Shown: positions 2,784-51,288, counted from the stretch's first letter. The stretch: 64,000 bases of DNA from an uncultured virus (IMG/VR IMGVR_UViG_3300010344_001075) (IMGVR_UViG_3300010344_001075), one strand, 5' to 3'. Program-made: numbers and translations. Notes: generated by a model not told the origin, from the letters alone.

Positions 2784-3012
2784 AAATGAGTGCTGATTGC
2801 ATTAGCCTTTGAAACTCTGCAAAAGAGTCAAGTAGGAATGCTTGACCATAGGCCATTTGTAAGAGAGTAAACAAAATCATTTTTCCATGATCTGTTTTTA
2901 TGAAGTCAGGGTTCTCCCTGCAGCCTTTTTCCAATCCTATGAGGAAAGGAACAGGATTTGAGGGCATTGATGTTTGAAACATTGCCTTAGCAAGTTCTTT
3001 TAAATCAGTCAT
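2740..3012 (-). CDS. hypothetical protein
   Basis: 90-aa ORF with GGAGGT upstream. Confidence 0.7.
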   Translation of the reverse strand: MTDLKELAKAMFQTSMPSNPVPFLIGLEKGCRENPDFIKTDHGKMILFTLLQMAYGQAFLLDSFAEFQRLMQSALIFDETEKEEQNGTNA

Positions 3013-3052
3013 AATTTACCTCCAATTTTTTTAGTTAGACATGAGTATCCAT

Positions 3053-3075
3053 AAAAAAAGGCCCCGAAGGGCCTT
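3053..3075 (-). terminator. intrinsic terminator
   Basis: Minus strand AAGGCCC-TTCG-GGGCCTT followed by a T run, just after the stop of 3079..3297. Confidence 0.85.
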
Positions 3076-3078
3076 CAG

Positions 3079-3297
3079 TTAAACATTGTCCTGAACAAGT
3101 ATTTTTAACAGTATTTCAGTTTCCATACATGCCTCAATATTGCTTTCATTACACAAAGTAATAAAAGCATCCTCTGCATTTTTGGCTTCCTGAATTTTTG
3201 AAACAGTTTTTGCTGTCTCTTTTTCTGTCATTCCATAGTATTCATCCATTTCTTTAACATAGTGGATCAGGGCTGTCTTAAAATCTTCAAGTTTCAT
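3079..3297 (-). CDS. hypothetical protein
   Basis: 72-aa ORF, AATCTAAGAAAT leader, followed by a terminator. Confidence 0.7.
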   Translation of the reverse strand: MKLEDFKTALIHYVKEMDEYYGMTEKETAKTVSKIQEAKNAEDAFITLCNESNIEACMETEILLKILVQDNV

Positions 3298-3346
3298 ATT
3301 TCTTAGATTTAGATTGTTTGTACACTATACTGACACAAAAGGTCAT

Positions 3347-3381
3347 AAAAAAAGGAACAGAGCGTGATGCCCTGTTCCTTT
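3347..3381 (-). terminator. intrinsic terminator
   Basis: Minus strand AAAGGAACAGGGC...GCTCTGTTCCTTTTTTT downstream of 3419..3907. Confidence 0.85.
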
Positions 3382-3418
3382 AAACGTCCCATCCAGTTTT
3401 CTGTTGACTTCCAGTACA

Positions 3419-3907
3419 TTACGCAGCTTTGTTTGCTTTGGCTGCCTTTACTTTGAAAATCCCTTTCTCAGTTAACTCCATGTTACCGAGGTAGTCCGGA
3501 TTTTTTTGAATTTTTGTCCTCCAATAAACTTGTGTCTTAAACGAAGCCACATTGATTTTGGTTTTCAACCCCTGTGCAACACAGAACTCGTTTGCGGCTG
3601 CGATGAGGTCTTCCCATTTTCCGCCCTTGGCTATCAGCTCATCAATTTTTACTGACAGTTTGGGTTTGGCCGGTGCTTTCGGTGCCTTGGCCTTCTTTTC
3701 GGCCTTCGGTTTCGATGCTGCCTTGCCCTTTTCCGTACCCTTCTTTTCTTCGGCAGCTTTGTCTTTTGATTTGTTAATCAACTTCTCTGCCAGTTTGCTG
3801 TTCTGGGGTACCACTTTCTTTGCCAGCGGGTTAGCTGCCTTGTTGGCGGTTTCACTTGACTTTTCTGTTGCTTTTGCAACGCCGTTTTCAATAACTTTTG
3901 CTTCCAT
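3419..3907 (-). CDS. Lys/Ala-rich basic protein, possibly DNA-binding or histone-like
   Basis: KAKAPKAPAKPK low-complexity segment plus a small globular C-terminal part; own terminator. Confidence 0.75.
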   Translation of the reverse strand: MEAKVIENGVAKATEKSSETANKAANPLAKKVVPQNSKLAEKLINKSKDKAAEEKKGTEKGKAASKPKAEKKAKAPKAPAKPKLSVKIDELIAKGGKWEDLIAAANEFCVAQGLKTKINVASFKTQVYWRTKIQKNPDYLGNMELTEKGIFKVKAAKANKAA

Positions 3908-4423
3908 TATTTGTTTGATTTAGAAACGTTTCTGAGCATTATTGCCCATTGTGGGCAGGGAGTCGCTCGCTGACTCAGTGTTGTACACATACGCATCCCG
4001 CGCACTGTACCTTGTACTGCCTTTTTTAGAGGCCCTGCTCGGTAATAAAACGGTTTGTCAACCCATTGTACTTTCATCCCCAAAGTACTTGACACATAAT
4101 GTCTTGTCTCTCATTTACGGAAATACTGTACATTGTACAGTACTTGTCGATCAGCAGCCGCTGGCAACTGTTTCACAACAGGTTTGGCGTCGACTTGTCT
4201 GTCTATCTAATATGTTCAACGAGAAGTGGGAATATACTCTGTGCCAATGTAGCACATTTAACGCTATGAACAACGTAGGGCAGTTAACTTGTTGATTTAG
4301 AAGTTAGTACATTGGCTCGTACACTACTTGGAAACTCGTTTCACAACGGAATTCCTTTCACTTTCAATACGTTACCTCCGTATCCCTGTATTTACAACAT
4401 GTCAAACAACATCCGAATCTCAC
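3908..4423 (-). ncRNA. candidate structured long 5' leader or ncRNA
   Basis: No credible ORF; many short hairpins; begins right after a consensus promoter (see findings). Confidence 0.4.
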
Positions 4424-4562: not shown

Positions 4563-6110
4563 AGGTGTCTAAGACGTTTAGGAATAGACAAAAGTACTGA
4601 AAAGGTGTCTAAATATCGCTCTTAACCGCGTTTCGCATAATATCGCCGTACATCGGCACACGCACCTACGGCAGTACAATACAGTACAACATACCCCAAA
4701 CCCCTGGAAAAGGCAAGGAACCGCACCTACCAGGCTCTTAGTGGGCTGTACTGTACAGGGCACACAACCTAGCAGCCTAGCAGCCTACTAATCAAACAAT
4801 ATTGAAAGGTGTCTAAATGCTAATAAGGCTATGTACCATGCCGTATAGTCACATCGAGGGTGTCAAGGTAGGTATAGTAGGCAACAGGCTATAAACATAA
4901 GGAAAAGGCAAGGAAAGGTGTCACACAGGCGAAATAGGCAGCCTAACAGGCACACATGAGGTAGGTGGGTGAGGCACTGACATACGACACTGATGGGCAG
5001 TTGATTAGGTGTCTAAAGGCATTGGCAAGGCACACATAGACAGGGGGTTACACCCAATAACAATACTGATAGGCACAAATTAAGGTCTGCCTACCTCACA
5101 CTATCACCCTGTCACCCAACATGTTACCCACTAACCCAACTGCCTGCCTCACCCAATAACAAATGACATAAGCAGTTCATATCTAATTCAATAGGTGTCA
5201 ACTCTGCCTAATGTCTGCCTTATCAACAAACAAAGTACAGTAAGCAGTAACAATGTCAATAATCAAATATGGCTATCTATCCATGTATGTAATGGCATAT
5301 CACATTACTAAGGTATCAACATAGGCTATAGGTATCAATGTCAACGTAGGCAGTATAACAGGCTAATAAGGTAGGGTAGGTGTCAATGGGTGGGTGGGCT
5401 GACAAGGGGTAGGCGGGTGTCAGGGCGGTAAGGCGGGTGTCAAGGTGGGTGTCAAGGGGGTGTCAAGGGGGTGGGGCGATCTGGGCGCGGGCCGCTGAAT
5501 GGTGCCCTGCCTTTTCTAATGACATTAGGTGCCCGATACAATGCCTTGATGCCTAAGGTGTTATGCCCGTTGACATTTGACATGTGGCTGCTGGGCGGTT
5601 GCCCTATTCGCTTAGGTGTCAGGGCTTTAGGCAGGGCGGGGGCTTGACACCCCCCCGGGCGTTTGACGTGTGTAATTCAGGGCTGCGGCGGAAGGACCCC
5701 TTGATAATTGTCCAAATCTATTTCGTAAAATTAGACATTTTCAAGCCCCACCCTCTGCCCTGACTCCCCTTGATAAAGACATCAATTCCCCTTGACATTG
5801 ACATTAGACACACGACATTAGACATTGACACCTCGACACCTAACGCGATTCCCCTTGACACCGTTGCCCTGATGCCCTTTGATAATTGTAGTGACACCTC
5901 TTGACAAGCCCGTCAGCCCCCTCGACAAGTGTTTATATAGGGGAACGTAAAAAGGTGTCACAAGGAGTATGCGAAATTGACAAGCGACATAGGCTTGATG
6001 CCTTCGCAGCATCGCAGAAAAAATTTGTAAAAAATATTTCGGAAAAATTGACAGGGTGTCACACGGCTATTGACACCTCTTGATACGGCTATTGACACCT
6101 CTTGACACGG
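4563..6110. repeat. GGTGTC/GACACC iteron-rich non-coding region (packaging or origin candidate)
   Basis: About 22 GGTGTC hexamers counted by eye on both strands; 22-bp tandem repeat at 6061-6112. Confidence 0.75.
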
Positions 6111-9187: not shown

Positions 9188-10360
9188 ATGGCAAGTGAAG
9201 CATTTGCAGGAGTAGGTACAAAGTTCCAACGATGGGATGGAGCAGCATGGCAAGACATTGCTGAGGTTAATTCCATTGATGGTCCGGGAATGACCAAGGA
9301 CGTTCTTGAGGTTACGTCATTGGATACGGATGCAGGATACAACGAGTTCATTACAGGATTCGCTGAAGGAGGGACTCTCACACTGGATATGAACTTTACA
9401 AGAGAGACCTATGAATTGATGAAAGAGGATTTTGAATCAGATGAGGTGCGGTCTTATCGAATTCAATTACCGGATTATGATTTAGCACCAAGTACATTTA
9501 CAATAGAAGGGTTAGTAATCGAATTACCTATAACGATGACAGCAGATGATAAAGTAACGGCCGACGTTGTTATACAGATAACAAGTCAGGTAATATTGGA
9601 TGATGGGATTTCGTGGAGCACATACTGGACGGCACTAAAAGCAGCTATGACGAATAAGCCTTCACAGGCATACTCAATAGCTGCAAATACATTTATTACG
9701 TCATTAGTTGACGGTGGAGTATGGGCAAAACTTGACAGGTTATTTGTTTTTGCCGCCGAAACAAATGACGGGGGAGAGGCTTTGTTGGATTGGATACATC
9801 CAACAGGCACCCCTGCAATTCTTGCATATGGGAGTGGCGGAAGCGTACCGACATTTACTGCAAATAAGGGATTTAAGGGAAATGTAGCTAATAAGGCATA
9901 TATAGATACTAAATATAATCCAACGTTGCATGCGGTAAATTATACTCAAAACTCCGCATCAATGGGTTGTTATATCAATGAGCTAAGTACGGGTACGGGA
10001 AATCATTTAATGGGTGGGGTGGCTGGTATAAATTATCTTTCTCCAAGATATAACAACGGCCAATTCAGGTGTAATGTTAACGGAGCTGTGGATTGGACCG
10101 CTCAAACAATGCTATCAACTCCATCTCTCGTTTCTGTTGTTAGATCAAATGCGACTACGGTTACTGCATATATAGGAACAACAGCGTTAGCCGCTAAAAC
10201 AATAAATTCGGCGGCTATTGGGAATCATGAAATCACAATACTTACAATAACTACTGCTTATGATAACTCAGAAGTGTCAATGGCATATATAGGGGCGGGG
10301 TTGACAGAGGCAGATATAACAGTATTGAAGAACGCTTGGGACGCTTTTTTTTTGACATAA
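9188..10360 (+). CDS. tail-tube paralogue fused to a C-terminal putative lectin/adhesin domain
   Basis: First ~137 aa align by eye with the major tail protein 31358..31789 (AGVGTKF.RW, MNFTRETYE, ADDKVTADV); the rest is a beta-rich domain in more AT-rich DNA. Confidence 0.85.
   Translation: MASEAFAGVGTKFQRWDGAAWQDIAEVNSIDGPGMTKDVLEVTSLDTDAGYNEFITGFAEGGTLTLDMNFTRETYELMKEDFESDEVRSYRIQLPDYDLAPSTFTIEGLVIELPITMTADDKVTADVVIQITSQVILDDGISWSTYWTALKAAMTNKPSQAYSIAANTFITSLVDGGVWAKLDRLFVFAAETNDGGEALLDWIHPTGTPAILAYGSGGSVPTFTANKGFKGNVANKAYIDTKYNPTLHAVNYTQNSASMGCYINELSTGTGNHLMGGVAGINYLSPRYNNGQFRCNVNGAVDWTAQTMLSTPSLVSVVRSNATTVTAYIGTTALAAKTINSAAIGNHEITILTITTAYDNSEVSMAYIGAGLTEADITVLKNAWDAFFLT
9608..9638 (+). 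repeat. left putative recombination site ATTTCGTGGAG-N14-CACTAA
   Basis: Inverted copy at 11490-11520. Confidence 0.7.
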
Positions 10361-11493
10361 ATCCGGCAACAGAGCTACTGGTGAGAATGAATGACGATAC
10401 CGACCTTTATGCACATGAGAGTCATCTTTTGATTAAGGATGATAGGATATTTCTCATGTATATGAGCAATAAGGAAACATCTACCGAGTGGCAAACTACC
10501 GCTAAAGCAATACTAAAGGTATTTAATTTAAACACACTTGTAAGATTAAAAACATTTGAACTGTTTTATCCGGGATTAGAAGCGGGGGTAACACTTCCCG
10601 CCGACGTGCCAATTAATGTACCGAGAATGTATTTCTATGGTGATAATACGTTAAGATGTTTCTGTCCTAATAGTGCAACTTTATATACAAGAGATGTAGA
10701 TATTTCTGATGGCGATCCCGATAATTGGACTGTCGGGAATATTTCAATCGCTCAGATGACAATGAAGGATACCGAAGGTAATGATGTGGTTGCTGATGTG
10801 ACAAGCGCAAATATATTAACACATTTAGATTATGTTTTGGGTGATGATTATGCGGGATATCACGATCTAATGCCAATGTTCCGAAATCTTGACCCAGTGA
10901 AAGATGGAAGTACATGGTATGCACCAATGGAATTTAATAGTGAGAAAAGCCACACATTAGCATCTCCTACAATAATATGTAAATCTACGGATGCGGGTAA
11001 TACATGGGCTTTCGGTTCACTAATGGGGTATAATCCTTCTGTTTATAGACTTCACCTAACAGAAACAGGAGTTGTTTTAAGCGGAGGTGTTTTACATAGC
11101 CTTTCAAGAGGAACGGCTATGAGGTATGTGACATCAGATGATAATGGCGTGACATGGGTAAGGCTTGCCGATAAAAGCACTGTTGCAGGCCTGACGTATT
11201 TGAGCGCAAAACCATGCTTGATTAGTTACATAGAGGGAGCTACACAAAGAAACGTTCTTGCTATTAATATAACATCCGAGGTTAATGGCAATAGCGGCAG
11301 GACAACACTTGCTATTGTAGAGACATCAGACTTTACCACTTTCACATTGATTAAAAAGATAATAACACCCACCTATTGTCATTATCCTTCACTATGTAAA
11401 TATGGCAGTAGTTTATATATGGCATATACTAAGGGATGGCCGTTAGGTTCTGCAACAGATAGAAATACAATATCATTTGAGAAAATATATTAG
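10336..11493 (+). CDS. Asp-box beta-propeller (sialidase/glycosidase-like); possible -1 frameshift extension of 9188..10360
   Basis: Asp-boxes KSTDAGNTW and TSDDNGVTW, C-terminal HYPSL; overlaps the upstream stop across a T9 run. Confidence 0.8.
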   Translation: MGRFFFDINPATELLVRMNDDTDLYAHESHLLIKDDRIFLMYMSNKETSTEWQTTAKAILKVFNLNTLVRLKTFELFYPGLEAGVTLPADVPINVPRMYFYGDNTLRCFCPNSATLYTRDVDISDGDPDNWTVGNISIAQMTMKDTEGNDVVADVTSANILTHLDYVLGDDYAGYHDLMPMFRNLDPVKDGSTWYAPMEFNSEKSHTLASPTIICKSTDAGNTWAFGSLMGYNPSVYRLHLTETGVVLSGGVLHSLSRGTAMRYVTSDDNGVTWVRLADKSTVAGLTYLSAKPCLISYIEGATQRNVLAINITSEVNGNSGRTTLAIVETSDFTTFTLIKKIITPTYCHYPSLCKYGSSLYMAYTKGWPLGSATDRNTISFEKIY

Positions 11494-11520
11494 TGTAGTA
11501 GCGAATAGACTCCACGAAAT
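11490..11520 (-). repeat. right putative recombination site (inverted) ATTTCGTGGAG-N14-CACTAA
   Basis: Plus strand TTAGTG-N14-CTCCACGAAAT; ends 6 nt before the recombinase ATG. Confidence 0.7.
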
Positions 11521-11526
11521 ATAAAT

Positions 11527-12465
11527 ATGAATATACTGAGAAAATATAAGAAATTTACAGAGATCAGTCCAATGTTTTTGGCAGAGAAACAAATACAGAT
11601 TGTTCATAAGTCATATTTGGCATATACTCGTTCTTCAGATGTATTTACGGAATGGTTACAAAGTAAGAATTATATAGATTTACCAATGCGGAAAATTACA
11701 CCACAAATCATATCTGATTTTTTCATTTACTTAGCTAATGTGCGAAAGTATGATAGACCGACTTGTCAGAAGTATTTTATGACTTTGCGTTCTATATTCA
11801 GATATGCATTACGTATTGGTGAAATAAAGTTTATTCCATTTGATAAAGAACATATAGTATTTCCAAAGAAAGGTAAGGATTGTTCTGCGGCTCTTATACC
11901 ATCTCATATTATGCCTATTTTATTAGAGGATATGCGAGAAAATGATCCTCAATTGTTTTTGGCTTGTATGATGGAATTTTATTGTGGAGCTCGTCCTGGT
12001 AGGGAGATTCGTTTAATACAAGTGCGTAATTTTGATTTGATCAATGGTATTTTAACAATAGATGCCGATAAGACCAAGAATGGTAAAGTTGGCAGAATAA
12101 CAATGAGTGATGATTTTATTGAGATGTGTAAAGCGTATGGTATTGCTGATGCTGCTCCAAATTTATATGTATTTGGTAAAAACAAACACATAGATACCAG
12201 ACCATTATCTGAAAATATGCTCAATTATAGGTTTCATACGTATCGTGCAAAATATCAATTATCAAATGATGTGAAGTTATATTCTTTTAAACATATGGGT
12301 GCTAGTTATCTAGTTCATTCCAAAGTATTAGATATACTTGAGTTAAAAGATCATTTGCGGCATTCTGATCTTAGTGCTACACAACATTATGTAAAGAAAG
12401 TACTTGGGGCTGATAATGCTGCAATAAGAACACAATTTCCGAACCCTTTGAAAATAGCGATATAA
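11527..12465 (+). CDS. tyrosine recombinase (Bacteroidota-type integrase/invertase)
   Basis: CGARP (R), KTK (K), YSFKH (variant of HxxR), LRHS (H), TQHY (Y); SAM-like N-domain; no arm-binding domain evident. Confidence 0.9.
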   Translation: MNILRKYKKFTEISPMFLAEKQIQIVHKSYLAYTRSSDVFTEWLQSKNYIDLPMRKITPQIISDFFIYLANVRKYDRPTCQKYFMTLRSIFRYALRIGEIKFIPFDKEHIVFPKKGKDCSAALIPSHIMPILLEDMRENDPQLFLACMMEFYCGARPGREIRLIQVRNFDLINGILTIDADKTKNGKVGRITMSDDFIEMCKAYGIADAAPNLYVFGKNKHIDTRPLSENMLNYRFHTYRAKYQLSNDVKLYSFKHMGASYLVHSKVLDILELKDHLRHSDLSATQHYVKKVLGADNAAIRTQFPNPLKIAI

Positions 12466-12527
12466 TTGTTCACTAATACACTGTCAGATGAGAATAGATA
12501 AGTCAAATTCAAAAGAAGGAGGAAGTT

Positions 12528-27035: not shown

Positions 27036-27621
27036 TCGTTACATGGAATTGGTAAAACCTCAGTACAAGGTTTCTTATTTGGCATATTTGAAAGATGCTA
27101 AGAAGATGGAGGCCTTCAGCACACATCAACCACCACTTATACACATGCTTAACACTATTATTGAGGGGGAGGTGTTAGAGTTTGGAATGGGTTGGCACAG
27201 TACTCCAATAATGCACCTACTTTGTGGGATACAGGGTCGGAACCTGTTAAGTGTTGACACTGACAAGAATTGGTTTGACAAATTTAAGGACTACCGGGCA
27301 CCTTGGCATCAATTGCAACTGTCGGAACAAGAACCAATATTTAAAGGACAACACAGTATGTTTGATAAGCATTATGCCATTGCGTTTGTGGATGCAGCCC
27401 CGGCACAGATTCGGCAACCTGTTATTGAAAGAATCAAAGATGTGGCAGATTATGTTATTGTGCATGATTCAGAATGTACTTTCCAAGGAAGGAAGAATGC
27501 GTACGCATACGATTTTTCAATGTATAAGCATGTGTTGCACTTCCGTCCAATGAATCCTGCCACGTCGGTGTTGTCAAACTTGGATGAGATTCCAACTGAA
27601 GTAACAAGAATATTTGAATAA
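27025..27621 (+). CDS. class I SAM-dependent methyltransferase
   Basis: VLEFGMG..ST, SVD...W, FVD, VIVHD. Confidence 0.75.
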   Translation: MINDRYMELVKPQYKVSYLAYLKDAKKMEAFSTHQPPLIHMLNTIIEGEVLEFGMGWHSTPIMHLLCGIQGRNLLSVDTDKNWFDKFKDYRAPWHQLQLSEQEPIFKGQHSMFDKHYAIAFVDAAPAQIRQPVIERIKDVADYVIVHDSECTFQGRKNAYAYDFSMYKHVLHFRPMNPATSVLSNLDEIPTEVTRIFE

Positions 27622-28898
27622 TGGAAGAACGTAAAACCATAGTGCTTGTCTTACGAAGCGGAGGCGACTTTGCCATACGTGATGTTGAGTTAATCGCTCG
27701 GCATATTCAAGGTAAGTGGCAATCTCCAATTAAGCCTCGTATTATATGTCTGTGGGATAAGGCATCACAACATTATGATCTTGGTAATTTTGAATTGTTA
27801 CCGTTAAGCAATACATATCCTGGAACTTGGAGTCGCATCCAATTATACAGCCCAGAGATGGATCAGTATCGTCCGTTTTTGTATGTCGATCTCGACACAG
27901 CAGTTGTTAATTCTCTTGAGCAAATATTCGCTTCTATTATTGATCCATCTCTTTTTATTACTCTTGAGGATTTTTGGCAGAAGGGTTCTTTAGCAACCGG
28001 ACTTGTATGGTTCCCCAAAAATTGTGAAAAGACAAAAAAGGTTTGGGAGTCTTGGAAGATGCCGGTGGGTCGACGCATGGACAATTACATTCGCTCAGTT
28101 ATTTCGGCGGACACTTATTGGCAGAAATTAACCAATTCTATTTATGACTTCAAACCAAGGCGCGGAGGGTTACTCCAAAAAGTTCCGGAGGGGGCTTCGT
28201 TAATATGTTTTCATGGTAAACCTCGCATTTTTGAGGCAGTTAATATAGGATGGGTTAACACCTACGTAAATTCAAGGGTTTCCTGCCCGCTCCGGGGTGA
28301 TCGTAGTGTTACTGTTATAATACCGTACAACAAGGATCGGGGCTGGTTACAGGCAGCAAAAGACAGCGTACCTGAAGGCGTCCAGTTGATATTAAGTAAG
28401 GGGGACGGAAATTGGCCTGAGAATTTTAATGCGGTACTTGATAAGGCTACCGGGCGTTATATTCGTTGGTTACATGAGGACGATATGCTTACTCCAAATT
28501 GTATAGAGGATTCAATAAAGACATTTGAGGAACAAGATGTTGATTTCATTCATGGCCCCGCTGTTGAAATCTTTATGAACGCTGGACGAGCCACACAACG
28601 ATATACACCACCTATTAAATATCCTACCGTAGATGATTTATTGAGGAAGAATGTTTTGCACAGTGCTACAATGATGTATAAACGTGAGGTATTTGAAAAG
28701 GTGGGCAAAATGAATGAGACATTAAATACAGCAGAGGAATTTGAGTTTAATCTGCGGTGTTTAAAAGCAGGGTTGAAAATAGGGTACTGTGAAACACCTT
28801 TGGCTTTTTACCGCAGACACGCTCAGCAAAAGGTACGGGTCGTTCCAAAAGAACAGAAAGATAAAGAACGTGAACAAGTGAAACAGTTATACAGATGA
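27621..28898 (+). CDS. two-domain glycosyltransferase (GT8-like + GT2)
   Basis: N-domain Y.DLD and FHGKP; C-domain VTVIIPY, HEDD, GY...PL..YRRH..Q. Confidence 0.8.
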   Translation: MEERKTIVLVLRSGGDFAIRDVELIARHIQGKWQSPIKPRIICLWDKASQHYDLGNFELLPLSNTYPGTWSRIQLYSPEMDQYRPFLYVDLDTAVVNSLEQIFASIIDPSLFITLEDFWQKGSLATGLVWFPKNCEKTKKVWESWKMPVGRRMDNYIRSVISADTYWQKLTNSIYDFKPRRGGLLQKVPEGASLICFHGKPRIFEAVNIGWVNTYVNSRVSCPLRGDRSVTVIIPYNKDRGWLQAAKDSVPEGVQLILSKGDGNWPENFNAVLDKATGRYIRWLHEDDMLTPNCIEDSIKTFEEQDVDFIHGPAVEIFMNAGRATQRYTPPIKYPTVDDLLRKNVLHSATMMYKREVFEKVGKMNETLNTAEEFEFNLRCLKAGLKIGYCETPLAFYRRHAQQKVRVVPKEQKDKEREQVKQLYR

Positions 28899-43813: not shown

Positions 43814-44107
43814 TTAATCGTTGCATCTCTCGCCTCCTTCCGTCTTTCCATACAAAACCGACCATTCGCCCGTACTCGATGATATCCATGTCCTCACAGG
43901 CGGAGGACAATCACATCTTAAATCAAACGGACTATGTACCGCCCCACATCTCGGACATATCCATCCGTACATTGCAACAGTTTCCGCTATCCGCTTCTCC
44001 ACCTCCTGATTGATGAGAGGTTCAATCATATCAATAATTGCATTCATGGACTTATACCGTGAACGTACTTTCATTTCGTCGAATAAATTGCGTAGCTTCT
44101 CTTTCAT
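43814..44107 (-). CDS. hypothetical protein with zinc finger
   Basis: GWICPRCG.V.SP....C.C. Confidence 0.7.
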   Translation of the reverse strand: MKEKLRNLFDEMKVRSRYKSMNAIIDMIEPLINQEVEKRIAETVAMYGWICPRCGAVHSPFDLRCDCPPPVRTWISSSTGEWSVLYGKTEGGERCND

Positions 44108-44219: not shown

Positions 44220-44417
44220 TTAGTTTTCAATTACATCTACCATGCATGGATCAAAACTATCGTAGTTATCTCCGCAGGTCTTACAGATACAGTCCTTGCC
44301 CCAATCATCATTATAAACAATGCGGGTGTTTACCGCATGACATATCCACATATCCTCACCGGCAACCTCATAGTTCATGGAGGCTTTGCCGCACTTGCAT
44401 TTTTCTGTGTGTTTCAT
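44220..44417 (-). CDS. small Cys-rich hypothetical protein
   Basis: CKCG and CICKTC motifs. Confidence 0.6.
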   Translation of the reverse strand: MKHTEKCKCGKASMNYEVAGEDMWICHAVNTRIVYNDDWGKDCICKTCGDNYDSFDPCMVDVIEN

Positions 44418-44553
44418 TTCGTATCGGTGTTTTTATTTTCTATCCCTGGTTTTATATGTTAACCTTTAGTGTACATATAACATAGTTAGCAAACATTAAA
44501 ACGATTTGCTAACAGGGGCTATAAATAATAAAACCCCTGCCAGCGCACCGCTA

Positions 44554-44772
44554 CTAATCAACAGGCTCAAAATTATCTTCAAAATACTGTTTTGCCACAA
44601 GCCACTGGTCGTTATGGTTTTTTGGATTTCGTGCAATCATATCACCTACTTTTGGACTTCCTGCATCTTTGTCGGCTTGTGATACGGATACTGCATCAGA
44701 TAATTTTTCACCTTCTTCAAAAGGTCGTAGTTCTGCAATCTGCTTTCTACGGTACTCTTTAAATTCACTCAT
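44554..44772 (-). CDS. hypothetical protein nested in an attC-like loop
   Basis: 72 aa; GDMIARNPKNH.DQWLVA..YF. Confidence 0.75.
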   Translation of the reverse strand: MSEFKEYRRKQIAELRPFEEGEKLSDAVSVSQADKDAGSPKVGDMIARNPKNHNDQWLVAKQYFEDNFEPVD

Positions 44773-44873
44773 TTTTATTATGTATTAAGTTACGTGCAGT
44801 AATTATTCCCCCACCGCACAAAAAGGGGTTTTACATATTCATAGCCCCAAAACGTTGTAGGTAATTAAAAATA

Positions 44874-45068
44874 CTACTTCTGTGGTTTTTTCGAAGCGTA
44901 TTTCCTTTCCCAACTTTGCCGTTCAAAATCTAAAAATTCAATAAGGTATTCCAAAACCTTCACCTTATCCCATTCTTTTAATTCTTCTTCGGTGTAATCA
45001 CTTTCGATTTCAAATGAACACTCTTCTACCGTGTCCATCATAAACTGTTGCATTTTCTCTAATTCCAT
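44874..45068 (-). CDS. acidic hypothetical protein (cassette gene)
   Basis: 64-aa ORF between GTTGTAGGTA and TACCTACAAC. Confidence 0.7.
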   Translation of the reverse strand: MELEKMQQFMMDTVEECSFEIESDYTEEELKEWDKVKVLEYLIEFLDFERQSWERKYASKKPQK

Positions 45069-45216
45069 AATTTTTAGATTTTTATTAGTGTTTCAATTCC
45101 GTATTTTTAACATACCTACAACAAGCGGTATAGTGCAGTTTGCCATTAGGTTAGTGGTAAGGTGAAAAAGTCTGCAATGCAAACCGACACCATACCGCCA
45201 ACCGTTATATGCAAGG

Positions 45217-46038
45217 CTAAGACCGTGCATCGTTCAACCTTTGTAGTGTTATTTCAATCGCTCGTGGGTTAATATCACATCCGATAAAATTTCGGTTTAA
45301 TTCTTTACAAACTACTGCGGTTGTGCCACTACCTAAATAAAAATCTGCAACCAAATCGCCTTCGTTACTACTTGCTTTTATTATTCGTTCAATCAATGCT
45401 TTTGGTTTTTGGGTATCATAACCTAATCTTTCTTTTGCTGTTGGCTGTATATGTTGTATTTCCCAAACATCGTGTAATGGCACACCCTTGTTTTCAGTTT
45501 CACGCTTTTTATAACTACCATCTTCATTTTTTAATCTTACCAATTTGCCATCAATCACACCCCTAACTGTATCTTCAATTTCATTTGGCTTTGCGTAATC
45601 CTGATATTGAATGTTAAATTTTGATTTATCTTTTGAATAAAACAATATTACATCGTGCATTTTTTGAAAACCAAATGAAATATTTGACCATCTTTTATAC
45701 CACCAACTTATTTCGTTTCTAAATTTATCATACCCAAAAATATCGTCCATAATACACCGCATCCAATGGTTTATTTTAGTATCCATTTGCAAATAAATAC
45801 TCCCTGTTGGTTTCAATATTCGGTGCATTTCTTTTATTCGTGGTATGTAGTGCGCTTCAATTTCACTACGTATCGGTTTTAAATCTTGATAGTCTGCAAA
45901 TTTCCTTCCAGTACCATAAAGAATATCACAATAAATTAAGTCAATCGTGTTGTCTTTAATTTCCGCCATCAATTCTAAATTGTCGCAAATTCTAAGGTCT
46001 AAAAAATTTCCTCCCCCTATTTTTTCTTTTACTTTCAT
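45217..46038 (-). CDS. DNA N6-adenine/N4-cytosine methyltransferase, beta class (cassette gene)
   Basis: IDLIY.DILY (motif IV variant), TQKP..L..RII, DFYLGSGTT (motif I). Confidence 0.9.
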   Translation of the reverse strand: MKVKEKIGGGNFLDLRICDNLELMAEIKDNTIDLIYCDILYGTGRKFADYQDLKPIRSEIEAHYIPRIKEMHRILKPTGSIYLQMDTKINHWMRCIMDDIFGYDKFRNEISWWYKRWSNISFGFQKMHDVILFYSKDKSKFNIQYQDYAKPNEIEDTVRGVIDGKLVRLKNEDGSYKKRETENKGVPLHDVWEIQHIQPTAKERLGYDTQKPKALIERIIKASSNEGDLVADFYLGSGTTAVVCKELNRNFIGCDINPRAIEITLQRLNDARS

Positions 46039-46173
46039 TTGTTCATTTATTTAAGTTTCTACTAATTTTACCGCCCAGCATATAACACGTTGTATATGTC
46101 AGTTTTGCCAATTGGCAGTATCGCTTTGAATGGAAGTAGGTGCATGGCAAAACCGAACACATACAACCATACG

Positions 46174-46380
46174 TTACCGCCAATTAAATAGAACATCGTG
46201 TTCGTGAATAAACTGGTCAGCGCAATTGTTTAATACGTTTTCTGTCTTGTTTTTATACGCTTGATTTTTGCCAAATATTTCATCAATAACATATTCTCTT
46301 GCAATATCTCGTGATGAAAACACTTCTGCAACTTCTGAGCCCCCAAAACCGTTTTCCTGATAAACAACATATACTTTCAT
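46174..46380 (-). CDS. hypothetical protein
   Basis: MKVYVV...VFSS...A; its stop codon lies inside the GTTA core. Confidence 0.7.
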   Translation of the reverse strand: MKVYVVYQENGFGGSEVAEVFSSRDIAREYVIDEIFGKNQAYKNKTENVLNNCADQFIHEHDVLFNWR

Positions 46381-46763
46381 TTTTTGTCAATTTTATTGTG
46401 ATACTTTTCGCTGTTATTTAAAAACACGTCAATGAACCAATGTGTTACATCATTTAACACCGCACTCCATCGCCACTGTTCAAAATGATTCTTAGAACTC
46501 AACCATGCCCCCTCTGCCACGCCTCCACTATGACTATAAATCAATACGCATTGTCCACTTTCTGGCATTCTGTCCTTTATGTCAATCCACTCTTCCTCGC
46601 TCGGCATCTTCTCCGCTATCCGCTTCTCCACCTCCTGATTGATGAGATATTCAAGTTGTTCTGAAAATTGTTTGTGATATTCTTCACTGACTTTCCATCC
46701 CGTTCTCTCATCCCATTCAGAAGCCCAAGTATTAATAAATTTGGCTTTTGTTATCTCTTTCAT
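46377..46763 (-). CDS. DUF551-like protein
   Basis: WI...DRMPE.GQ.VL ... VTHW. Confidence 0.75.
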   Translation of the reverse strand: MKEITKAKFINTWASEWDERTGWKVSEEYHKQFSEQLEYLINQEVEKRIAEKMPSEEEWIDIKDRMPESGQCVLIYSHSGGVAEGAWLSSKNHFEQWRWSAVLNDVTHWFIDVFLNNSEKYHNKIDKK

Positions 46764-46769
46764 CTCTTG

Positions 46770-46995
46770 TTAGTTTTGAACTTCAATTTCTTCAACCCTC
46801 CAATCTTCATGTTCACCAAAGGGACTTGTGTAATAATCATCAGGTCTGTTATAAATGTCCCAATGCTCCTTTTCTTTTTCCGCTTTATGAAAAGCCATTG
46901 CCATTTCTGCACCCTTTCGTGTTTTATGAAGGCTCATTGTTGCATAAGCACTTTCATAAATGCAGGAATTATATAAAAAGGCATAAACCTTCATC
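46770..46995 (-). CDS. hypothetical protein (probable start MKVYAF; start coordinate approximate)
   Basis: GAGAGATGAA start context shared with neighbouring genes. Confidence 0.6.
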
Positions 46996-47040
46996 TCTCG
47001 TTTGTTTTTATTGTTCACCTTTAGTGCACATATAACCCAG

Positions 47041-47433
47041 TTAGCCACAATTTCCACATCCGCAATCGTAGCCCATGATTTCTATATCTTCAGGATTAAG
47101 TTTATCTGGATATAAATTAATAAAGCACTCTAAGCATAAAGCTGTATTGTGCCATCGTTTTGGTATTTTAACCCAATCTTCATCTTTACAACTCCAGATA
47201 ACATGTTGGTCTCTGCCGCAATATCTACAGCTTTGTTTGTCTCTAAGTCTTAATTTTGTTAGTAAAAACTTTTTCAATCCTACACGTAAGTAGTCTAATG
47301 TCCTAAAGTACCATGCGTAATCAAAAAGATAACTTCGCTTACCACAGCTAATAAAACTGTGGCTAACACCGCATAAAACCAATAAAGGTTTTAGTGGGTT
47401 GCGAAGGGTTATAATTCTATTTAATGTTTTCAT
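47041..47433 (-). CDS. hypothetical Cys-containing protein that starts inside an attC-like loop
   Basis: MKTLNR... reads through TGTGGCTAAC; CRYCG and LCLEC motifs; stop in the GTTA core. Confidence 0.6.
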   Translation of the reverse strand: MKTLNRIITLRNPLKPLLVLCGVSHSFISCGKRSYLFDYAWYFRTLDYLRVGLKKFLLTKLRLRDKQSCRYCGRDQHVIWSCKDEDWVKIPKRWHNTALCLECFINLYPDKLNPEDIEIMGYDCGCGNCG

Positions 47434-47504
47434 ATATTGATAATTAAGTGTTTCAAATTCCTTTACTGGTCTTATGCCCACCGTTATCGTCCACTTCGCA
47501 GCCG

Positions 47505-47804
47505 CTAACACTCGTTCTCCTTCCAGTAGGCAAATAGTTCATCAATGGTTTGAAGTTTTCGCCCTTCAACATGAATGTTATCGTTGAGGATATATTCCTC
47601 GTTTAGTTCGCCAAAAAATATCTCCTGATCTTTTATGAGCCACTCAATAAATTCAAGTGGATAACCCGCATCTTCTTTCGCCACATAGTGTTCGCTGATG
47701 AGGGCGGTGAGGTCGGAAACATAAGACCGCATAGTGATGGGATGTTTTTTCCCCATCCATCTCTCCACCAACTCCCTTGCCGCTGCTGCTGATTTATCTG
47801 TCAT
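47505..47804 (-). CDS. hypothetical protein
   Basis: 99-aa ORF; EF.EWL and TIDELF.YW motifs. Confidence 0.7.
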   Translation of the reverse strand: MTDKSAAAARELVERWMGKKHPITMRSYVSDLTALISEHYVAKEDAGYPLEFIEWLIKDQEIFFGELNEEYILNDNIHVEGRKLQTIDELFAYWKENEC

Positions 47805-47807
47805 GGC

Positions 47808-48239
47808 TCAATGTATTTTTCTGTTTCGTATCCTTTTAATTCCCTTGCTATCGTAAGGATTAACCTCTAACGGATTAGGTCTGTCTTTGAATTGAGCCTT
47901 ATATTGCTCCATCCTCTCCTCCACCATCTTCTCTGCAAGTCGCTGGGCGTGGAGGGTGGCAAACTCGGTCATGGCGGCAATAGCACTATTTTCGTGTACA
48001 AACGAAGGATATTCTATACTGTGAGGATATTTATCAAGTATCTCCTCCGCACCCTCGGCTGTCGGCTGCTGCTTTTGAGATGCAGCAAACGCATTCATCA
48101 ACCTTATAACCTCATGTACCGGAATAAATGATCCATCATGTTCACATCCTTTCAGGAACTCCTCTGCTGTTGCACCCTCTCCGCAAAAAGGACAAGGCTT
48201 TGCCTGTTCAAATTGTTCTGTTGTCATATCGTTCCACAA
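47808..48239 (-). CDS. hypothetical protein (KPCPFCG, Lar-like N-terminus)
   Basis: Motif and operon packing. Confidence 0.6.
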   Translation of the reverse strand: MWNDMTTEQFEQAKPCPFCGEGATAEEFLKGCEHDGSFIPVHEVIRLMNAFAASQKQQPTAEGAEEILDKYPHSIEYPSFVHENSAIAAMTEFATLHAQRLAEKMVEERMEQYKAQFKDRPNPLEVNPYDSKGIKRIRNRKIH

Positions 48240-50128: not shown

Positions 50129-50341
50129 TCATCCTACAGGCCTCCCCCCTACGAATTTTGAAAACTCCCGAGCTTCCTCTTTCGTAATGAAGCCAGCCTT
50201 GTAAAGTTGGGATGCATGAAACGGACGGTCATCCGGGCTACAATAACGCAGTAGAATAATTGGATCCATTTGTTCAATTACGGAACCTAGATTTTTGTGC
50301 ACGGCATGCACGGCTCTTTTTAATGCTTTCAACTGACTCAT
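50129..50341 (-). CDS. hypothetical protein
   Basis: 70-aa ORF with ATGA overlaps. Confidence 0.6.
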
Positions 50342-51288
50342 AATTCTTTGTCTTTGGTTAGTAATGCTTTGAAATATGCTATTGTTAATTTCAATCCCGT
50401 CTCAAGTGTAACCTGTGGTTCCCAATCCAACACGGCCTTTGCCAATTCTATGTTTGGGCATCTTTGTTTTGGATCATCAGTAGGTAAATCTTTGTAAACA
50501 ATGACAGCCTTTACCCCTGTCAATCGGGTAACGCTTTCTGCAAGTTCTTTCATTGTAAACTCACCGGGGTTCCCGAGGTTGAGTGGGCCAGTAAAGAAAT
50601 CAGGTTGTTGCATAAAACGAATAAAAGCCTCAATCAAGTCATCAACAAATTGGAAGCTTCGTGTTTGACTACCATCCCCGTAGATTGTGAGTGGAAGCCC
50701 TTTCAAGGCTTGTACAATGAAATTACTTATAACCCTACCATCATCTTTTCTCATCCTAGGGCCGTAGGTATTGAAAATTCTTGCTATCTTTACCGGGGTT
50801 CCGTATTGCCGATGATAGTCCATACAAAGTGTTTCAGCACACCGCTTTCCTTCATCATAACAAGAACGGAGCCCTACCGGGTTTACATTGCCCCAATACC
50901 ACTCTGGCTGCGGATGCTCTTCTGGATCCCCATACACTTCGCTCGTAGAGGCCTGCAGGATTGGGATGTTAAGCCTACGGGCAAGGTCGAGTGCATTTAT
51001 CGTCCCCATTACATTGGTACAGATCGTTTGTACAGGATCTTTTTGATAATGCACGGGGGAGGCCGGACAGGCCAAGTTGTAAATTTGATCCACTTCTACG
51101 GAGTACGGTTGTGTAACATCCCAACGTATAAACTCAAAGTTGGTGTCGTTTAACAAATGGTTGATGTTACGCTTATCTCCCGAGAACAGGTTGTCCATAC
51201 AAATGACTTGGTTTCCCAAGCTTAGAAGTGTCGAGCAGAGGTGGCTTCCTATGAAACCGGCCCCTCCTGTTACAAGTATTCTTTTCAT
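50338..51288 (-). CDS. uxs: UDP-glucuronate decarboxylase (UDP-xylose synthase family SDR)
   Basis: [56 protein letters not shown]. Confidence 0.92.

Follow-up and report, generated by a model that had tools for sequence, protein, structure and literature searches.

Putative mobile gene cassettes with integron-like hairpins in an uncultured phage from activated sludge

Does a tailed phage carry gene cassettes that can be exchanged in the manner of an integron, and which enzyme would move them? The question is raised by a locus in a 64,000-nt stretch of DNA from an uncultured virus (IMGVR_UViG_3300010344_001075), the whole of which is called the window here. A preliminary description of this DNA had noticed an integron-like array among its phage genes. 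From the analysis reported below, we consider it likely that positions 44478-47486 of this tailed phage, which comes from activated sludge and has a Bacteroidota-type host, are a short row of mobile gene cassettes moved by a recombinase.

Units, junctions and hairpins of the array

The preliminary description listed four units, each bounded by GTTnnnnnn and its exact reverse complement, and all four of these GTTN6...N6AAC pairs were found in the sequence at the positions given for them. It also had the ORFs running leftward; all array genes indeed lie on the - strand, and all sites on the + strand. The features are as follows.

44439-44488, + strand: junction X1, first copy of a 59-nt repeat (D2)
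44485-44513, + strand: unit 0, GTTAGCAAA at 44485, then CATTAAAACGA, then TTTGCTAAC at 44505
44510-44857, + strand: site A (inverted repeat I2), arms 44515-44537 and 44826-44848, spacer AAAAC, GTTG at 44854
44854-45122, + strand: cassette 1, GTTGTAGGTA at 44854 to TACCTACAAC at 45113, with a 64-aa gene (44874-45068, - strand)
45119-45207, + strand: site E1, compact hairpin CAAC-AA-GCGGTAT...ATACCGC-CAACC-GTTA
45204-46086, + strand: cassette 2, GTTATATGC at 45204 to GCATATAAC at 46078, with an N6/N4 DNA methyltransferase gene (45217-46038, - strand)
46083-46176, + strand: site E2, compact hairpin TAAC-AC-GTTGTAT...ATACAAC-CATAC-GTTA
46173-47036, + strand: segment 3, starting with GTTACCGCC and ending at junction X2, ends unmatched; genes for 68 aa (46174-46380), 128 aa with DUF551 (46377-46763) and 74 aa (46770-46994), all on the - strand
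46994-47043, + strand: junction X2, second copy of the 59-nt repeat, with TAAC (47033-47036), CCA and GTTA (47040-47043)
47040-47367, + strand: cassette 4, GTTAGCCACA at 47040 to TGTGGCTAAC at 47358, with most of a 130-aa Cys-rich gene (47041-47433, - strand)
47364-47486, + strand: site D, arms 47371-47388 and 47460-47477, spacer CCACC, GTTA at 47483

Junction X1 reads ...CACATATAAC (TAAC at 44478-44481), ATA and GTTA (44485-44488). This TAAC-NNN-GTTA joint without a hairpin, at the left end of the row, is a possible simple insertion site, and its copy of the D2 repeat is 76% identical to that at X2. The cassette body of unit 0 is only an 11-nt capping loop, whose motif also caps hairpins in the Polaribacter phage P12002L. 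The 288-nt loop of site A contains an entire 72-aa gene (44554-44772, - strand). The 130-aa gene starts in the loop of site D, which includes its ATG (47433) and first codons, and has as its stop codon the TAA of the sense-strand TAAC. Beyond the nine matching letters, the repeat at the ends of cassette 1 extends to 18 nt at 83% (I9) and that of cassette 4 to 14 nt at 93% (I25); cassette 1 is also linked by end-to-end chaining of cassette ends. The cargo comprises one DNA methyltransferase (Pfam N6_N4_Mtase, E 2.8e-53) and several small proteins without assigned function. The 130-aa protein had no match in Pfam or PHROG, and a protein atlas gave no function for it or for the 72-aa protein. A tRNA scan of the window found none.

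The earlier picture of an array made of bounded units thus holds for the four pairs and fails for segment 3, which has no matching end: no reverse complement of its starting sequence was found. This segment is probably phage backbone between two insertion points.

The four pairs by themselves are not significant, because GTT-led 9-mer inverted repeats are not enriched window-wide (37/1157 pairs). This fact speaks for reading the repeats and hairpins as chance features of AT-rich intergenic DNA. The hairpins are significant against shuffled sequence. Under a strict descriptor (from [TC]AAC[AG] to [CA]GTT[AG], with spacers of 1-3 nt to the left and 3-6 nt to the right of a stem scoring at least 10.5 pairs out of 12), the window has exactly four matches (44510-44857, 45119-45207, 46083-46176 and 47364-47486), all on the + strand and none on the - strand; of 100 shuffled windows, 90 had no match and 10 had one, or 0.1 per strand. 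These are the places where a hairpin had been described after each AAC, ending at the next GTT. The chance reading is refuted by these counts, together with the recurrence of the architecture in 44 loci and the agreement of unit borders with contig breakpoints, and we regard it as virtually inconceivable. Sites A and D score 11.5 and 11, and the spacers of the four sites, 2-3 and 5-6 nt, fit the TAAC...GTTA family pattern described below. Looser early descriptors were dropped, their matches being as frequent as in shuffles.

The TAAC...GTTA hairpin family and its folding strand

The family pattern starts with TAAC-A and about 2 nt; a stem closed by a variable loop follows, and about 5 nt ending in C then lead to GTTA. 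We found it at 141 distinct sites in 44 loci, mostly viral contigs and Bacteroidota-labelled MAGs, with consensus ends [C/A]TAAC-A ... C-GTTA-[T/G/C] and commonest spacers of 2 and 5 nt. The 141 sites include 83 different basal 7-bp stems, and each of the four Watson-Crick pair types is represented at stem positions 1-4. The early remark that the hairpins differ in sequence and share an architecture applies to the family as well. Stem mismatches at pairs 7/8 and 12 are part of the pattern, which all four window sites fit. These statistics are anchored counts; a MAFFT alignment (A1) placed stems out of register where spacers differ. A scan of the genome collection gave 38 pattern matches, comprising nine full elements and 29 chance or partial matches. 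Copies of the E1 type are present in many viral loci, and a copy of E2, 79% identical, lies in a 462-kb uncultured phage (L001).

The complementary ends recur as well. The E1/E2 right arm served as seed for a set of 20 distinct viral loci. In 11 of them, the 9-mer on the left side of the hairpin is matched by its exact reverse complement 234-1078 nt farther left, and in 11 the 9-mer on the right side is so matched 101-637 nt farther right; at least one complementary end occurs in 17 of the 20, with a chance expectation of about 0.01 per query. Such ends chain into arrays with six cassettes in L020, 12 sites in L063 and at least 15 in L105. Sites are located 5' of their genes, start codons fall within hairpin loops at many loci, and the compact E1/E2 sites have a conserved 5' leader (CTGG-GCGG...) ahead of the gene. 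DNA methyltransferases above the Pfam cut-off account for 14 of 49 ORFs in array cargo; their dominance outside the window points to a store of anti-restriction genes.

Next, we compared the two strands. In the first 12 stem pairs of the family, the TAAC-to-GTTA strand carries 173 A.C, 23 G.T and 35 other mismatches, and the A.C mismatches, which sit at fixed stem positions, are G:T pairs when read on the gene-sense strand. DNA folds favour the gene-sense strand for E1, E2 and D (for E1, -15.6 kcal/mol versus -10.7 kcal/mol on the + strand with DNA parameters). Folding had been suggested as a check for extrahelical bases, and these are present in the gene-sense DNA folds as a 3-nt bulge beside the TAAC/GTTA end helix and, about 12 bp up, a bulge of 1 nt. 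The extrahelical pattern of integron attC sites differs from this one.

Strand bias, fixed orientation and start codons in loops would equally fit mRNA structure. The hairpins could act at the RNA level in the leftward operon, for instance as terminators, processing sites or structures at translation starts, with modules exchanged only by homologous recombination between conserved intergenic sequence. The wobble pairs on the gene-sense strand, its better RNA folds (E1, -36.6 kcal/mol, z -3.5), the single orientation of the sites relative to the genes, the loop start codons and the conserved leader all agree with such a role. However, no Rfam family matched the hairpins, either in the whole window at gathering scores or in 44300-47700 at E up to 10, where the best match reached 22.3 bits against a gathering score of 67; over the four sites, E up to 10 returned only MIR8643, at chance level (16.7 bits at 47371-47477, gathering score 135). 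An RNA role alone also leaves unexplained why the ends are complementary within a unit and different between units, why breakpoints fall at a core of just 4-5 conserved bases, why one gene has two different self-complementary end pairs (in the window and in L037) and why arrays elsewhere are headed by a recombinase gene. Therefore, we consider this explanation improbable, and an additional RNA role may exist alongside DNA recombination. The sole above-threshold Rfam match in the window is Twister-sister, at 19-86.

In their folded hairpin, their strand bias and the short conserved tetranucleotide at their flank, the units are reminiscent of single-strand transposition. It is very unlikely, though, that the units are small non-autonomous transposons, hairpin-ended and IS200/IS605-like or MITE-like, mobilised by a transposase of the HUH or another type: a unit has one hairpin and not one per end, its ends are complementary to each other and unlike those of other units, and the arrays run head-to-tail. 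No transposase family was reported among 47 window ORFs scanned against Pfam, and the neighbouring enzyme elsewhere is a tyrosine recombinase.

Unit borders in related phages and metagenomes

The preliminary description had named disagreement between unit borders and indel breakpoints as grounds for rejecting a cassette array. The borders agree with homology breakpoints in the relatives L030, L037 and L051, in sludge metagenome contigs and in a reordering of cassettes between two Polaribacter phages. The homology block common to the window and L030 is 45204-46179; therefore, cassette 2 and E2 move together. In L037, which lacks 44492-45210, other cassettes directly follow X1, the GTTA at 44488 being joined straight to the methylase cassette; the same joint (44488 to 45211) occurs in Logan contigs from runs X4 and X8. 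The methylase gene body of L037 is 97.8% identical to that of the window and carries the ends GTTACCAGC/GCTGGTAAC. In L051, unit 0 and site A occur together behind another hairpin, and the arms of site A enclose a different loop gene there and in Logan run X2. The cultured Polaribacter phages P12002L and P12002S have one methylase cassette at different positions, that is, reordered.

Pieces of Logan contigs begin or stop at 44485/44488, where contigs branch or end at X1, and at 44854, 45209, 46173 and 47040. Record 26 of run X8 spans exactly 44854-45209, taking in cassette 1; in run X4, record 22 begins exactly at 46173 and the match of record 23 exactly at 47040. Loose ends show other neighbours immediately after 46176/46178, the end of E2. 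We also looked for excised forms: the assembled contigs, which cannot reveal rare forms, contained no excised circle and no circle junction (46175 to 45204). Two backward joints, 46074 to 45118 and 46756 to 44206, proved to be look-alike sequence from other contexts, and a 2453-bp tandem repeat in L010/L028 was ruled out as a cassette circle, its ends not being complementary.

Not every change in the region follows the units. A 65-aa gene (44220-44432) is an indel without GTTA/TAAC ends and segment 3 is unmatched, so other mechanisms must reshape the region too. The contig of the nearest record, G001, stops, and window positions 21-51 kb are absent from it; the array comparison rests on the other relatives. 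Indels of G001 against window 0-4 kb are not GTTA-bounded. Several related contigs end 1-2 kb past a conserved ATPase gene.

A candidate recombinase and comparison with known systems

The early statement that the window has no integrase is correct for IntI, the best score against the integron-integrase model TIGR02249 being 17.1 bits with a cut-off of 265, and needs correcting in that an unrelated tyrosine recombinase (P0001, the protein with this score) is encoded at 11527-12465, 33 kb from the array, as the only one in the window. P0001 was rejected as the array recombinase: it has no homologue in five element-bearing records and no real similarity to array-end enzymes (E 0.009). It had no match among solved structures.

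In other genomes, a tyrosine recombinase does adjoin the arrays. An Xer-like enzyme is encoded at the array end in L068, L069 and L131; in L014 such an enzyme lies about 2 kb away from a truncated element, and in L078 beside a partial one. Among 20 loci of bacterial homologues, eight descriptor sites were found in seven (+-1.5 kb), and extended loci had 8, 3, 2 and 1 sites, beginning beside the recombinase gene. No homologue of the array-end enzymes was found in the window or in G001. Any tyrosine recombinase is present in only five of 15 element-bearing viral records; records at least 90% complete without one are G003, G011, G015, G016 and G018, the last of which contains the six-cassette array L020.

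These results bear on the earlier proposal of a host or distal integron-type integrase, under which the sites would be classical attC sites, the array a CALIN and the cassettes moved by a true IntI from the host or elsewhere. The AAC...GTT ends, imperfect hairpins and self-complementary cassette ends match attC logic. In the excerpted text of Qi et al. (2023, Front Microbiol, PMC9892861), a related region of P12002L with two DNA methylases is called a CALIN (an attC cluster without an integrase); two sites are predicted and treated as attC for IntI1, with a HattCI call for P12002L_attC1, and attC2, at the array end, recombined with attI1 under IntI1. P12002L_attC1 belongs to the TAAC...GTTA family, and its published primer matches the hairpin at about 3375-3435 of L035. 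However, the text of Qi et al. gives no verified recombinants of attC1 with IntI1, and the one complete integron that the excerpted text of the IntegronFinder 2.0 paper names for Bacteroidetes proper is that of Salinibacter ruber (PMC9024848). In addition, the window has no IntI, the recombinases adjoining arrays elsewhere are short (266-271 aa), Xer-like and below integron-integrase cut-offs, only GTTA/TAAC of the attC core is kept and the site is 5' of the gene. Thus, movement by a true IntI seems unlikely.

For the row of mobile cassettes that we favour, we infer the following mechanism. Read on the + strand, a unit would begin within GTTA, between G and TTA, and continue with N5-6, the body, N5-6-TAAC, the imperfect hairpin and C-G. 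In a circular or looped-out form, the complementary N5-6 ends would close a helix beside the hairpin, like the R boxes of attC. It is the gene-sense strand that folds well, and a tyrosine recombinase would cut such folded single strands at GTTA or next to it and rejoin them, which would excise, insert and reorder units. A short Xer-like recombinase, of the type that heads arrays in other phages and in sampled genomes of the bacterial class to which G007 belongs, is the likely enzyme; since none was found in the window, it would have to be supplied in trans by the host or by a co-infecting element. Since start codons and even whole genes can lie in a loop, recombination might in addition exchange the translation start and N-terminus of a protein; the two methylase heads, one in the window and one in L037, suggest as much.

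A broader proposal has, in our judgement, about an even chance of being right: Bacteroidota-type bacteria and their phages would share an integron analogue that evolved without IntI, in which folded single strands of gene-sense DNA are exchanged at TAAC/GTTA by a short Xer-like recombinase. Such a system would mainly bank DNA methyltransferases and small anti-defence genes, and most phages would carry cassettes only and borrow the enzyme. If the units move in this way, phages of a major bacterial phylum would own a dedicated route to gain, lose and reorder accessory genes, chiefly DNA methylases that blunt host restriction. This would help to account for hypervariable regions where phage assemblies break, and the integron principle would then also apply to viruses and to a second recombinase lineage. 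The sites are easily recognised.

Several known systems share parts of this design. In CTX-phi, host XerCD acts on a folded single-stranded phage site, so that there, too, an Xer-type tyrosine recombinase would use a hairpin from one phage DNA strand; however, the whole phage genome is integrated at dif and there is no gene cassette array. The PeSLs of T4-type phages, a subject of Arbiol et al. in 2010, are reportedly mobile regulatory cassettes of promoter-plus-stem-loop repeats, thought to use homologous recombination. They likewise place small accessory phage genes between repeated stem-loop modules shuffled among related phages, but the units described here have a core of 4-5 bases and ends that are complementary to each other, and recombinase genes stand at the head of arrays elsewhere. 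The P12002L CALIN is the only description of the hairpin family that we found in the literature; the excerpted text of PMC9892861 was not found to mention the TAAC...GTTA family, its strand bias or an Xer-like partner, yet the region has the same hairpins in a recombinase-less phage array, as in the window.

The closest likeness is to integrons themselves, as the preliminary description proposed. Head-to-tail cassettes are split by imperfect hairpins ending AAC...GTT, a cassette start is complementary to its own far end (as in the four window pairs), site sequence varies while structure is conserved, one strand folds better and has extrahelical bases, though in another pattern, and in other genomes a tyrosine recombinase gene stands at one array end. 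In integrons, the complementarity of a cassette's two ends arises from a crossover point within the core. The integron attC core consensus is RYYYAAC ... GTTRRRY; the window sites retain AAC and GTT, with the RRRY/RYYY parts free (e.g., GTTATAT and GTTACCG), so the sites are non-canonical, and the four of them within 3 kb, without IntI, form a CALIN by definition only if accepted as attC. In integrons, moreover, an IntI with a family-specific insertion adjoins the array, and the site follows the 3' end of a gene that has no promoter of its own and is read from Pc, whereas here the site is 5' of the gene and may contain the start codon or the entire gene; genes lie on the folding strand; and the carriers are phages and sampled genomes of the bacterial class to which G007 belongs, with an Xer-like enzyme. 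The array would therefore work much like an integron, yet it is no classical one: it has no IntI, its site precedes the gene and only the AAC/GTT core is kept.

Hairpin sites in the phage genome

The window is a tailed-phage genome, in which terminase, portal, tail tube and a 2384-aa tape-measure protein are encoded at 6-43 kb on the + strand, and DNA polymerase A, RecA, RuvC, a clamp-loader-like ATPase and other genes at 43-64 kb on the - strand. The array lies at the distal end of the leftward operon, where this meets the rightward structural genes. Parts of the stretch are present in 20 public runs from 15 studies, and all of the labelled runs are activated sludge, bioreactor or digester metagenomes. 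The closest DNA relatives of the array methylase occur in Flavobacterium, Cellulophaga, Polaribacter and Tenacibaculum phages. Elsewhere, a Twister-sister ribozyme (RF02681; 19-86, - strand; 37.9 bits, gathering score 34) lies at the window start amid small leftward genes, and family-2 glycosyltransferase and nucleotide-sugar epimerase/dehydratase genes (27621-28898 and 50338-51288) are possible surface-sugar modifying genes.

We searched for hairpin sites with a descriptor ([TC]AAC[AG], spacer of 1-3 nt, at least 10.5 of 12 stem pairs, spacer of 3-6 nt, [CA]GTT[AG]) that scores G.T and A.C alike. It matched four times in the window, every time on the + strand, whereas shuffled windows gave 0.1 matches per strand. 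Two looser descriptors were discarded, as their matches were no more numerous than in shuffles.

Features of the array, from left to right
44478-44488, +: junction X1 (leftmost), TAAC-ATA-GTTA without hairpin
44485-44513, +: unit 0, whose body is an 11-nt loop alone
44510-44857, +: hairpin site A, descriptor match right of unit 0; its 288-nt loop encloses an entire 72-aa gene
Between sites A and E1: cassette 1, 64-aa gene
45119-45207, +: hairpin site E1, descriptor match
Between sites E1 and E2: cassette 2, N6/N4 methylase
46083-46176, +: hairpin site E2, descriptor match
46173-47036, right of site E2: segment with three genes, without matching end
47033-47043, +: junction X2, TAAC-CCA-GTTA, within a 76% repeat of X1
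Between X2 and site D: cassette 4, filled by a 130-aa gene
47364-47486, +: hairpin site D, descriptor match; its loop contains the ATG (47433) of the 130-aa gene of cassette 4

The preliminary description had delimited the units by GTTN6...N6AAC pairs, all four of which are present in the sequence. GTT-led nine-base inverted repeats are not enriched in the window (37 of 1157 pairs up to 3 kb apart), and by themselves such pairs are weak evidence; the main support for the array comes from the hairpins. Genes may occupy the cassette body, the hairpin loop or both, and the 11-nt loop CATTAAAACGA caps an empty end in the window as well as in Polaribacter phage P12002L. We infer that the segment at 46173-47036 is phage backbone separating two insertion points, X1 and X2. 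Paralogous genes at 43814-44107 and 46377-46763, the longer one with DUF551, share a 43-nt stretch of 95% identity.

As for the cargo, 14 of 49 array ORFs from five loci pass the Pfam cut-off as DNA methyltransferases, and 31 have no family match. A methylase is also among the cassette genes of the window, and the only look-alikes of the 72-aa and 130-aa cassette proteins are unnamed and mostly viral.

Evidence of exchange of units between genomes

The preliminary description had proposed that the phage gains and shuffles genes as such units, and the unit borders do match breakpoints in three relatives sharing parts of the array (L030, L037 and L051), in Logan contigs and in the cultured Polaribacter phages P12002L and P12002S. 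The block common to the window and L030 is exactly 45204-46179, comprising GTTATATGC, the methylase and E2 up to CGTTA; E1 is absent from L030. Therefore, the unit moves as a gene together with the hairpin on its 5' side. In L037, which is 96-98% identical, the GTTA of X1 is joined straight to the methylase cassette; this relative lacks window positions 44492-45210 and 45952-48156 and has an additional methylase-like cassette (GTTATACGC...GCGTATAAC). Its methylase body, 97.8% identical to that of the window, bears the ends GTTACCAGC/GCTGGTAAC and has a different N-terminus, which begins inside its hairpin loop. In L051, a different hairpin precedes unit 0 and site A, and the loop encloses a different gene. 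One methylase cassette, 98.6% identical, is common to P12002L (4652-5667) and P12002S (2928-3943), where it lies on opposite sides of a neighbouring methylase cassette; the hairpin site is duplicated in P12002S.

Logan contigs from four runs and four studies also show array units with differing neighbours. The joint 44488->45211 occurs in two runs, and pieces begin or stop exactly at 44485/44488, 44854, 45209, 46173 and 47040, although such contigs break at any assembly-graph branch and some pieces must derive from other phages. At the loose ends, other hairpin arms precede 44485 and 46171, and other cassettes follow 46176/46178. A further joint, 44112->47002 in Logan run X2, would remove everything between similar upstream regions, one side being supported by 21 bases only.

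Part of the change in this region is independent of the hairpin sites. A 65-aa gene at 44220-44432 is missing from L037 and several Logan contigs (joints 44112->44437 and 44215->44424); this indel has no GTTA/TAAC ends and was therefore made by another mechanism. Viral contigs L010 and L028 contain a 2453-bp tandem duplication with an E1-type site, a methylase and three small genes, which is not a cassette circle because its ends are not complementary. L036, L038-L041 and other related viral contigs stop 1-2 kb past the conserved ATPase gene, at the start of the variable cassette region, where population heterogeneity may have broken the assemblies.

A hairpin family and its putative recombinase

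The right arm common to E1 and E2, described by one degenerate motif, has only these two copies in the window; it was also found in 29 stretches of viral contigs and in one 462-kb uncultured phage. Two sequence types, differing by compensating stem changes, can be distinguished among the copies (e.g. GCGGTAT/ATACCGC and GTTGTAT/ATACAAC). In 11 of 20 distinct viral loci, the exact reverse complement of the 9-mer on the left flank of the hairpin lies 234-1078 nt farther left, and in 11 of 20 that of the right-flank 9-mer lies 101-637 nt farther right, so that 17 of the 20 have at least one complementary cassette end (chance about 0.01 per query). Every such N6AAC is followed by another hairpin of the same build and different sequence. 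Walking from end to end in this way gave six cassettes in viral locus L020 and 12 sites in L063, which has a 57%-identical relative of the ATPase gene of the window phage and its array at the same genomic position; a Chitinophagales MAG contig (L105) has at least 15 sites.

Overall, the collection comprises 141 distinct sites, drawn from 44 loci, with a median length of 115 nt (range 40-382), the ends [C/A]TAAC-A and C-GTTA, and spacers most often of 2 and 5 nt. They have 83 different basal seven-base stems, and all four Watson-Crick pair types are represented at stem positions 1-4. The paired fraction of these sites is circular as evidence, because they were chosen by stem score; the independent supports for the family are the shuffle control and the end-complementarity test.

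The preliminary description had noted the absence of IntI, and indeed the sole tyrosine recombinase of the window (11527-12465; Pfam Phage_integrase, E 6.7e-9) reaches 17.1 bits with the integron-integrase model, whose cut-off is 265. No homologue of it was found in five element-bearing records. It belongs to a tail-side module that differs from G001, the nearest genome record. Homology with G001 ends at 9601 and returns at 12497, and an inverted repeat (9608-9638 / 11490-11520; 31 nt, 71%, 11-nt exact core) directly precedes the gene; the segment at 9608-12465 may be an invertible or replaceable module.

In other genomes, a different enzyme is found at array ends. In L068, RtcB and then a 271-aa recombinase come after an array of seven sites, and in L069 a 266-aa recombinase begins 280 nt beyond the last site. 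The two share 34% identity and match XerA and integron-integrase models best, all under cut-off. L014 has a homologue at a distance of about 2 kb from a truncated element, and in L078 one adjoins a partial element. At E <=1e-30, homologues occur in 161 of 301 sampled genomes (including one unpublished genome, G114) of the bacterial class of genome record G007. Within 1.5 kb on either side of the 20 best homologues there are eight descriptor sites in seven loci, against about 0.2 expected. Four extended bacterial loci have 8, 3, 2 and 1 sites, beginning beside the recombinase gene on the same strand, and in locus L131 the cassette ends chain.

Only five of 15 element-bearing viral records have any tyrosine recombinase, and none was found in the genome record G018, which is complete, has direct terminal repeats and contains the six-cassette array of L020. 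No homologue of the array-end enzyme was found in the window or G001; therefore, the window array is recombinase-less as far as seen, and we infer that an enzyme works on it in trans.

Strand bias and comparison with integrons

Read along the TAAC->GTTA strand, the mismatches within the first 12 stem pairs of the 141 sites are 173 A.C, 23 G.T and 35 others. The A.C mismatches, which cluster at pairs 7/8 (79 of 141 sites) and pair 12 (55 of 141), are G:T pairs on the complementary, gene-sense strand, and this strand is the better DNA folder for E1, E2 and D.

Folding energies (DNA parameters)
E1: gene-sense strand -15.6 kcal/mol; + strand -10.7 kcal/mol
E2: gene-sense strand -16.2 kcal/mol; + strand -13.6 kcal/mol
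D: gene-sense strand -11.9 kcal/mol; + strand -9.3 kcal/mol

Extrahelical bases are present in the gene-sense folds, with 3 nt bulged out next to the end helix and 1 nt farther up the stem, in a pattern other than that of attC. With E2 flanked by the two ends of the methylase cassette itself, the DNA fold includes the nine-base end helix. RNA structure, as an alternative or additional role of the hairpins, would also suit this strand bias.

Concerning the cassette-array reading, 10,705 phage genomes were screened earlier by means of IntegronFinder and HattCI, and 17 CALINs were reported, one of them in P12002L and carrying two methylases (Qi et al. 2023, PMC9892861). The attC1 primer in that paper corresponds to a TAAC...GTTA family hairpin. 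For attC1 no verified IntI1 recombinants are reported, and for attC2, at the array end, recombination with attI1 is reported. One complete integron in Bacteroidetes proper, that of Salinibacter ruber, is named in the IntegronFinder 2.0 paper. We found no description of the TAAC...GTTA family or of its Xer-like partner in the full-text literature, subscription journals being outside the coverage.

The initial designation as an integron-like cassette array in a phage holds for architecture and evidence of exchange, with recombination itself putative; the window array is not a classical integron. By integron convention, the + strand is the top strand, since each unit carries its site at its 3' end. 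The strand that folds is then the counterpart of the integron bottom strand, and in the window the genes sit on it.
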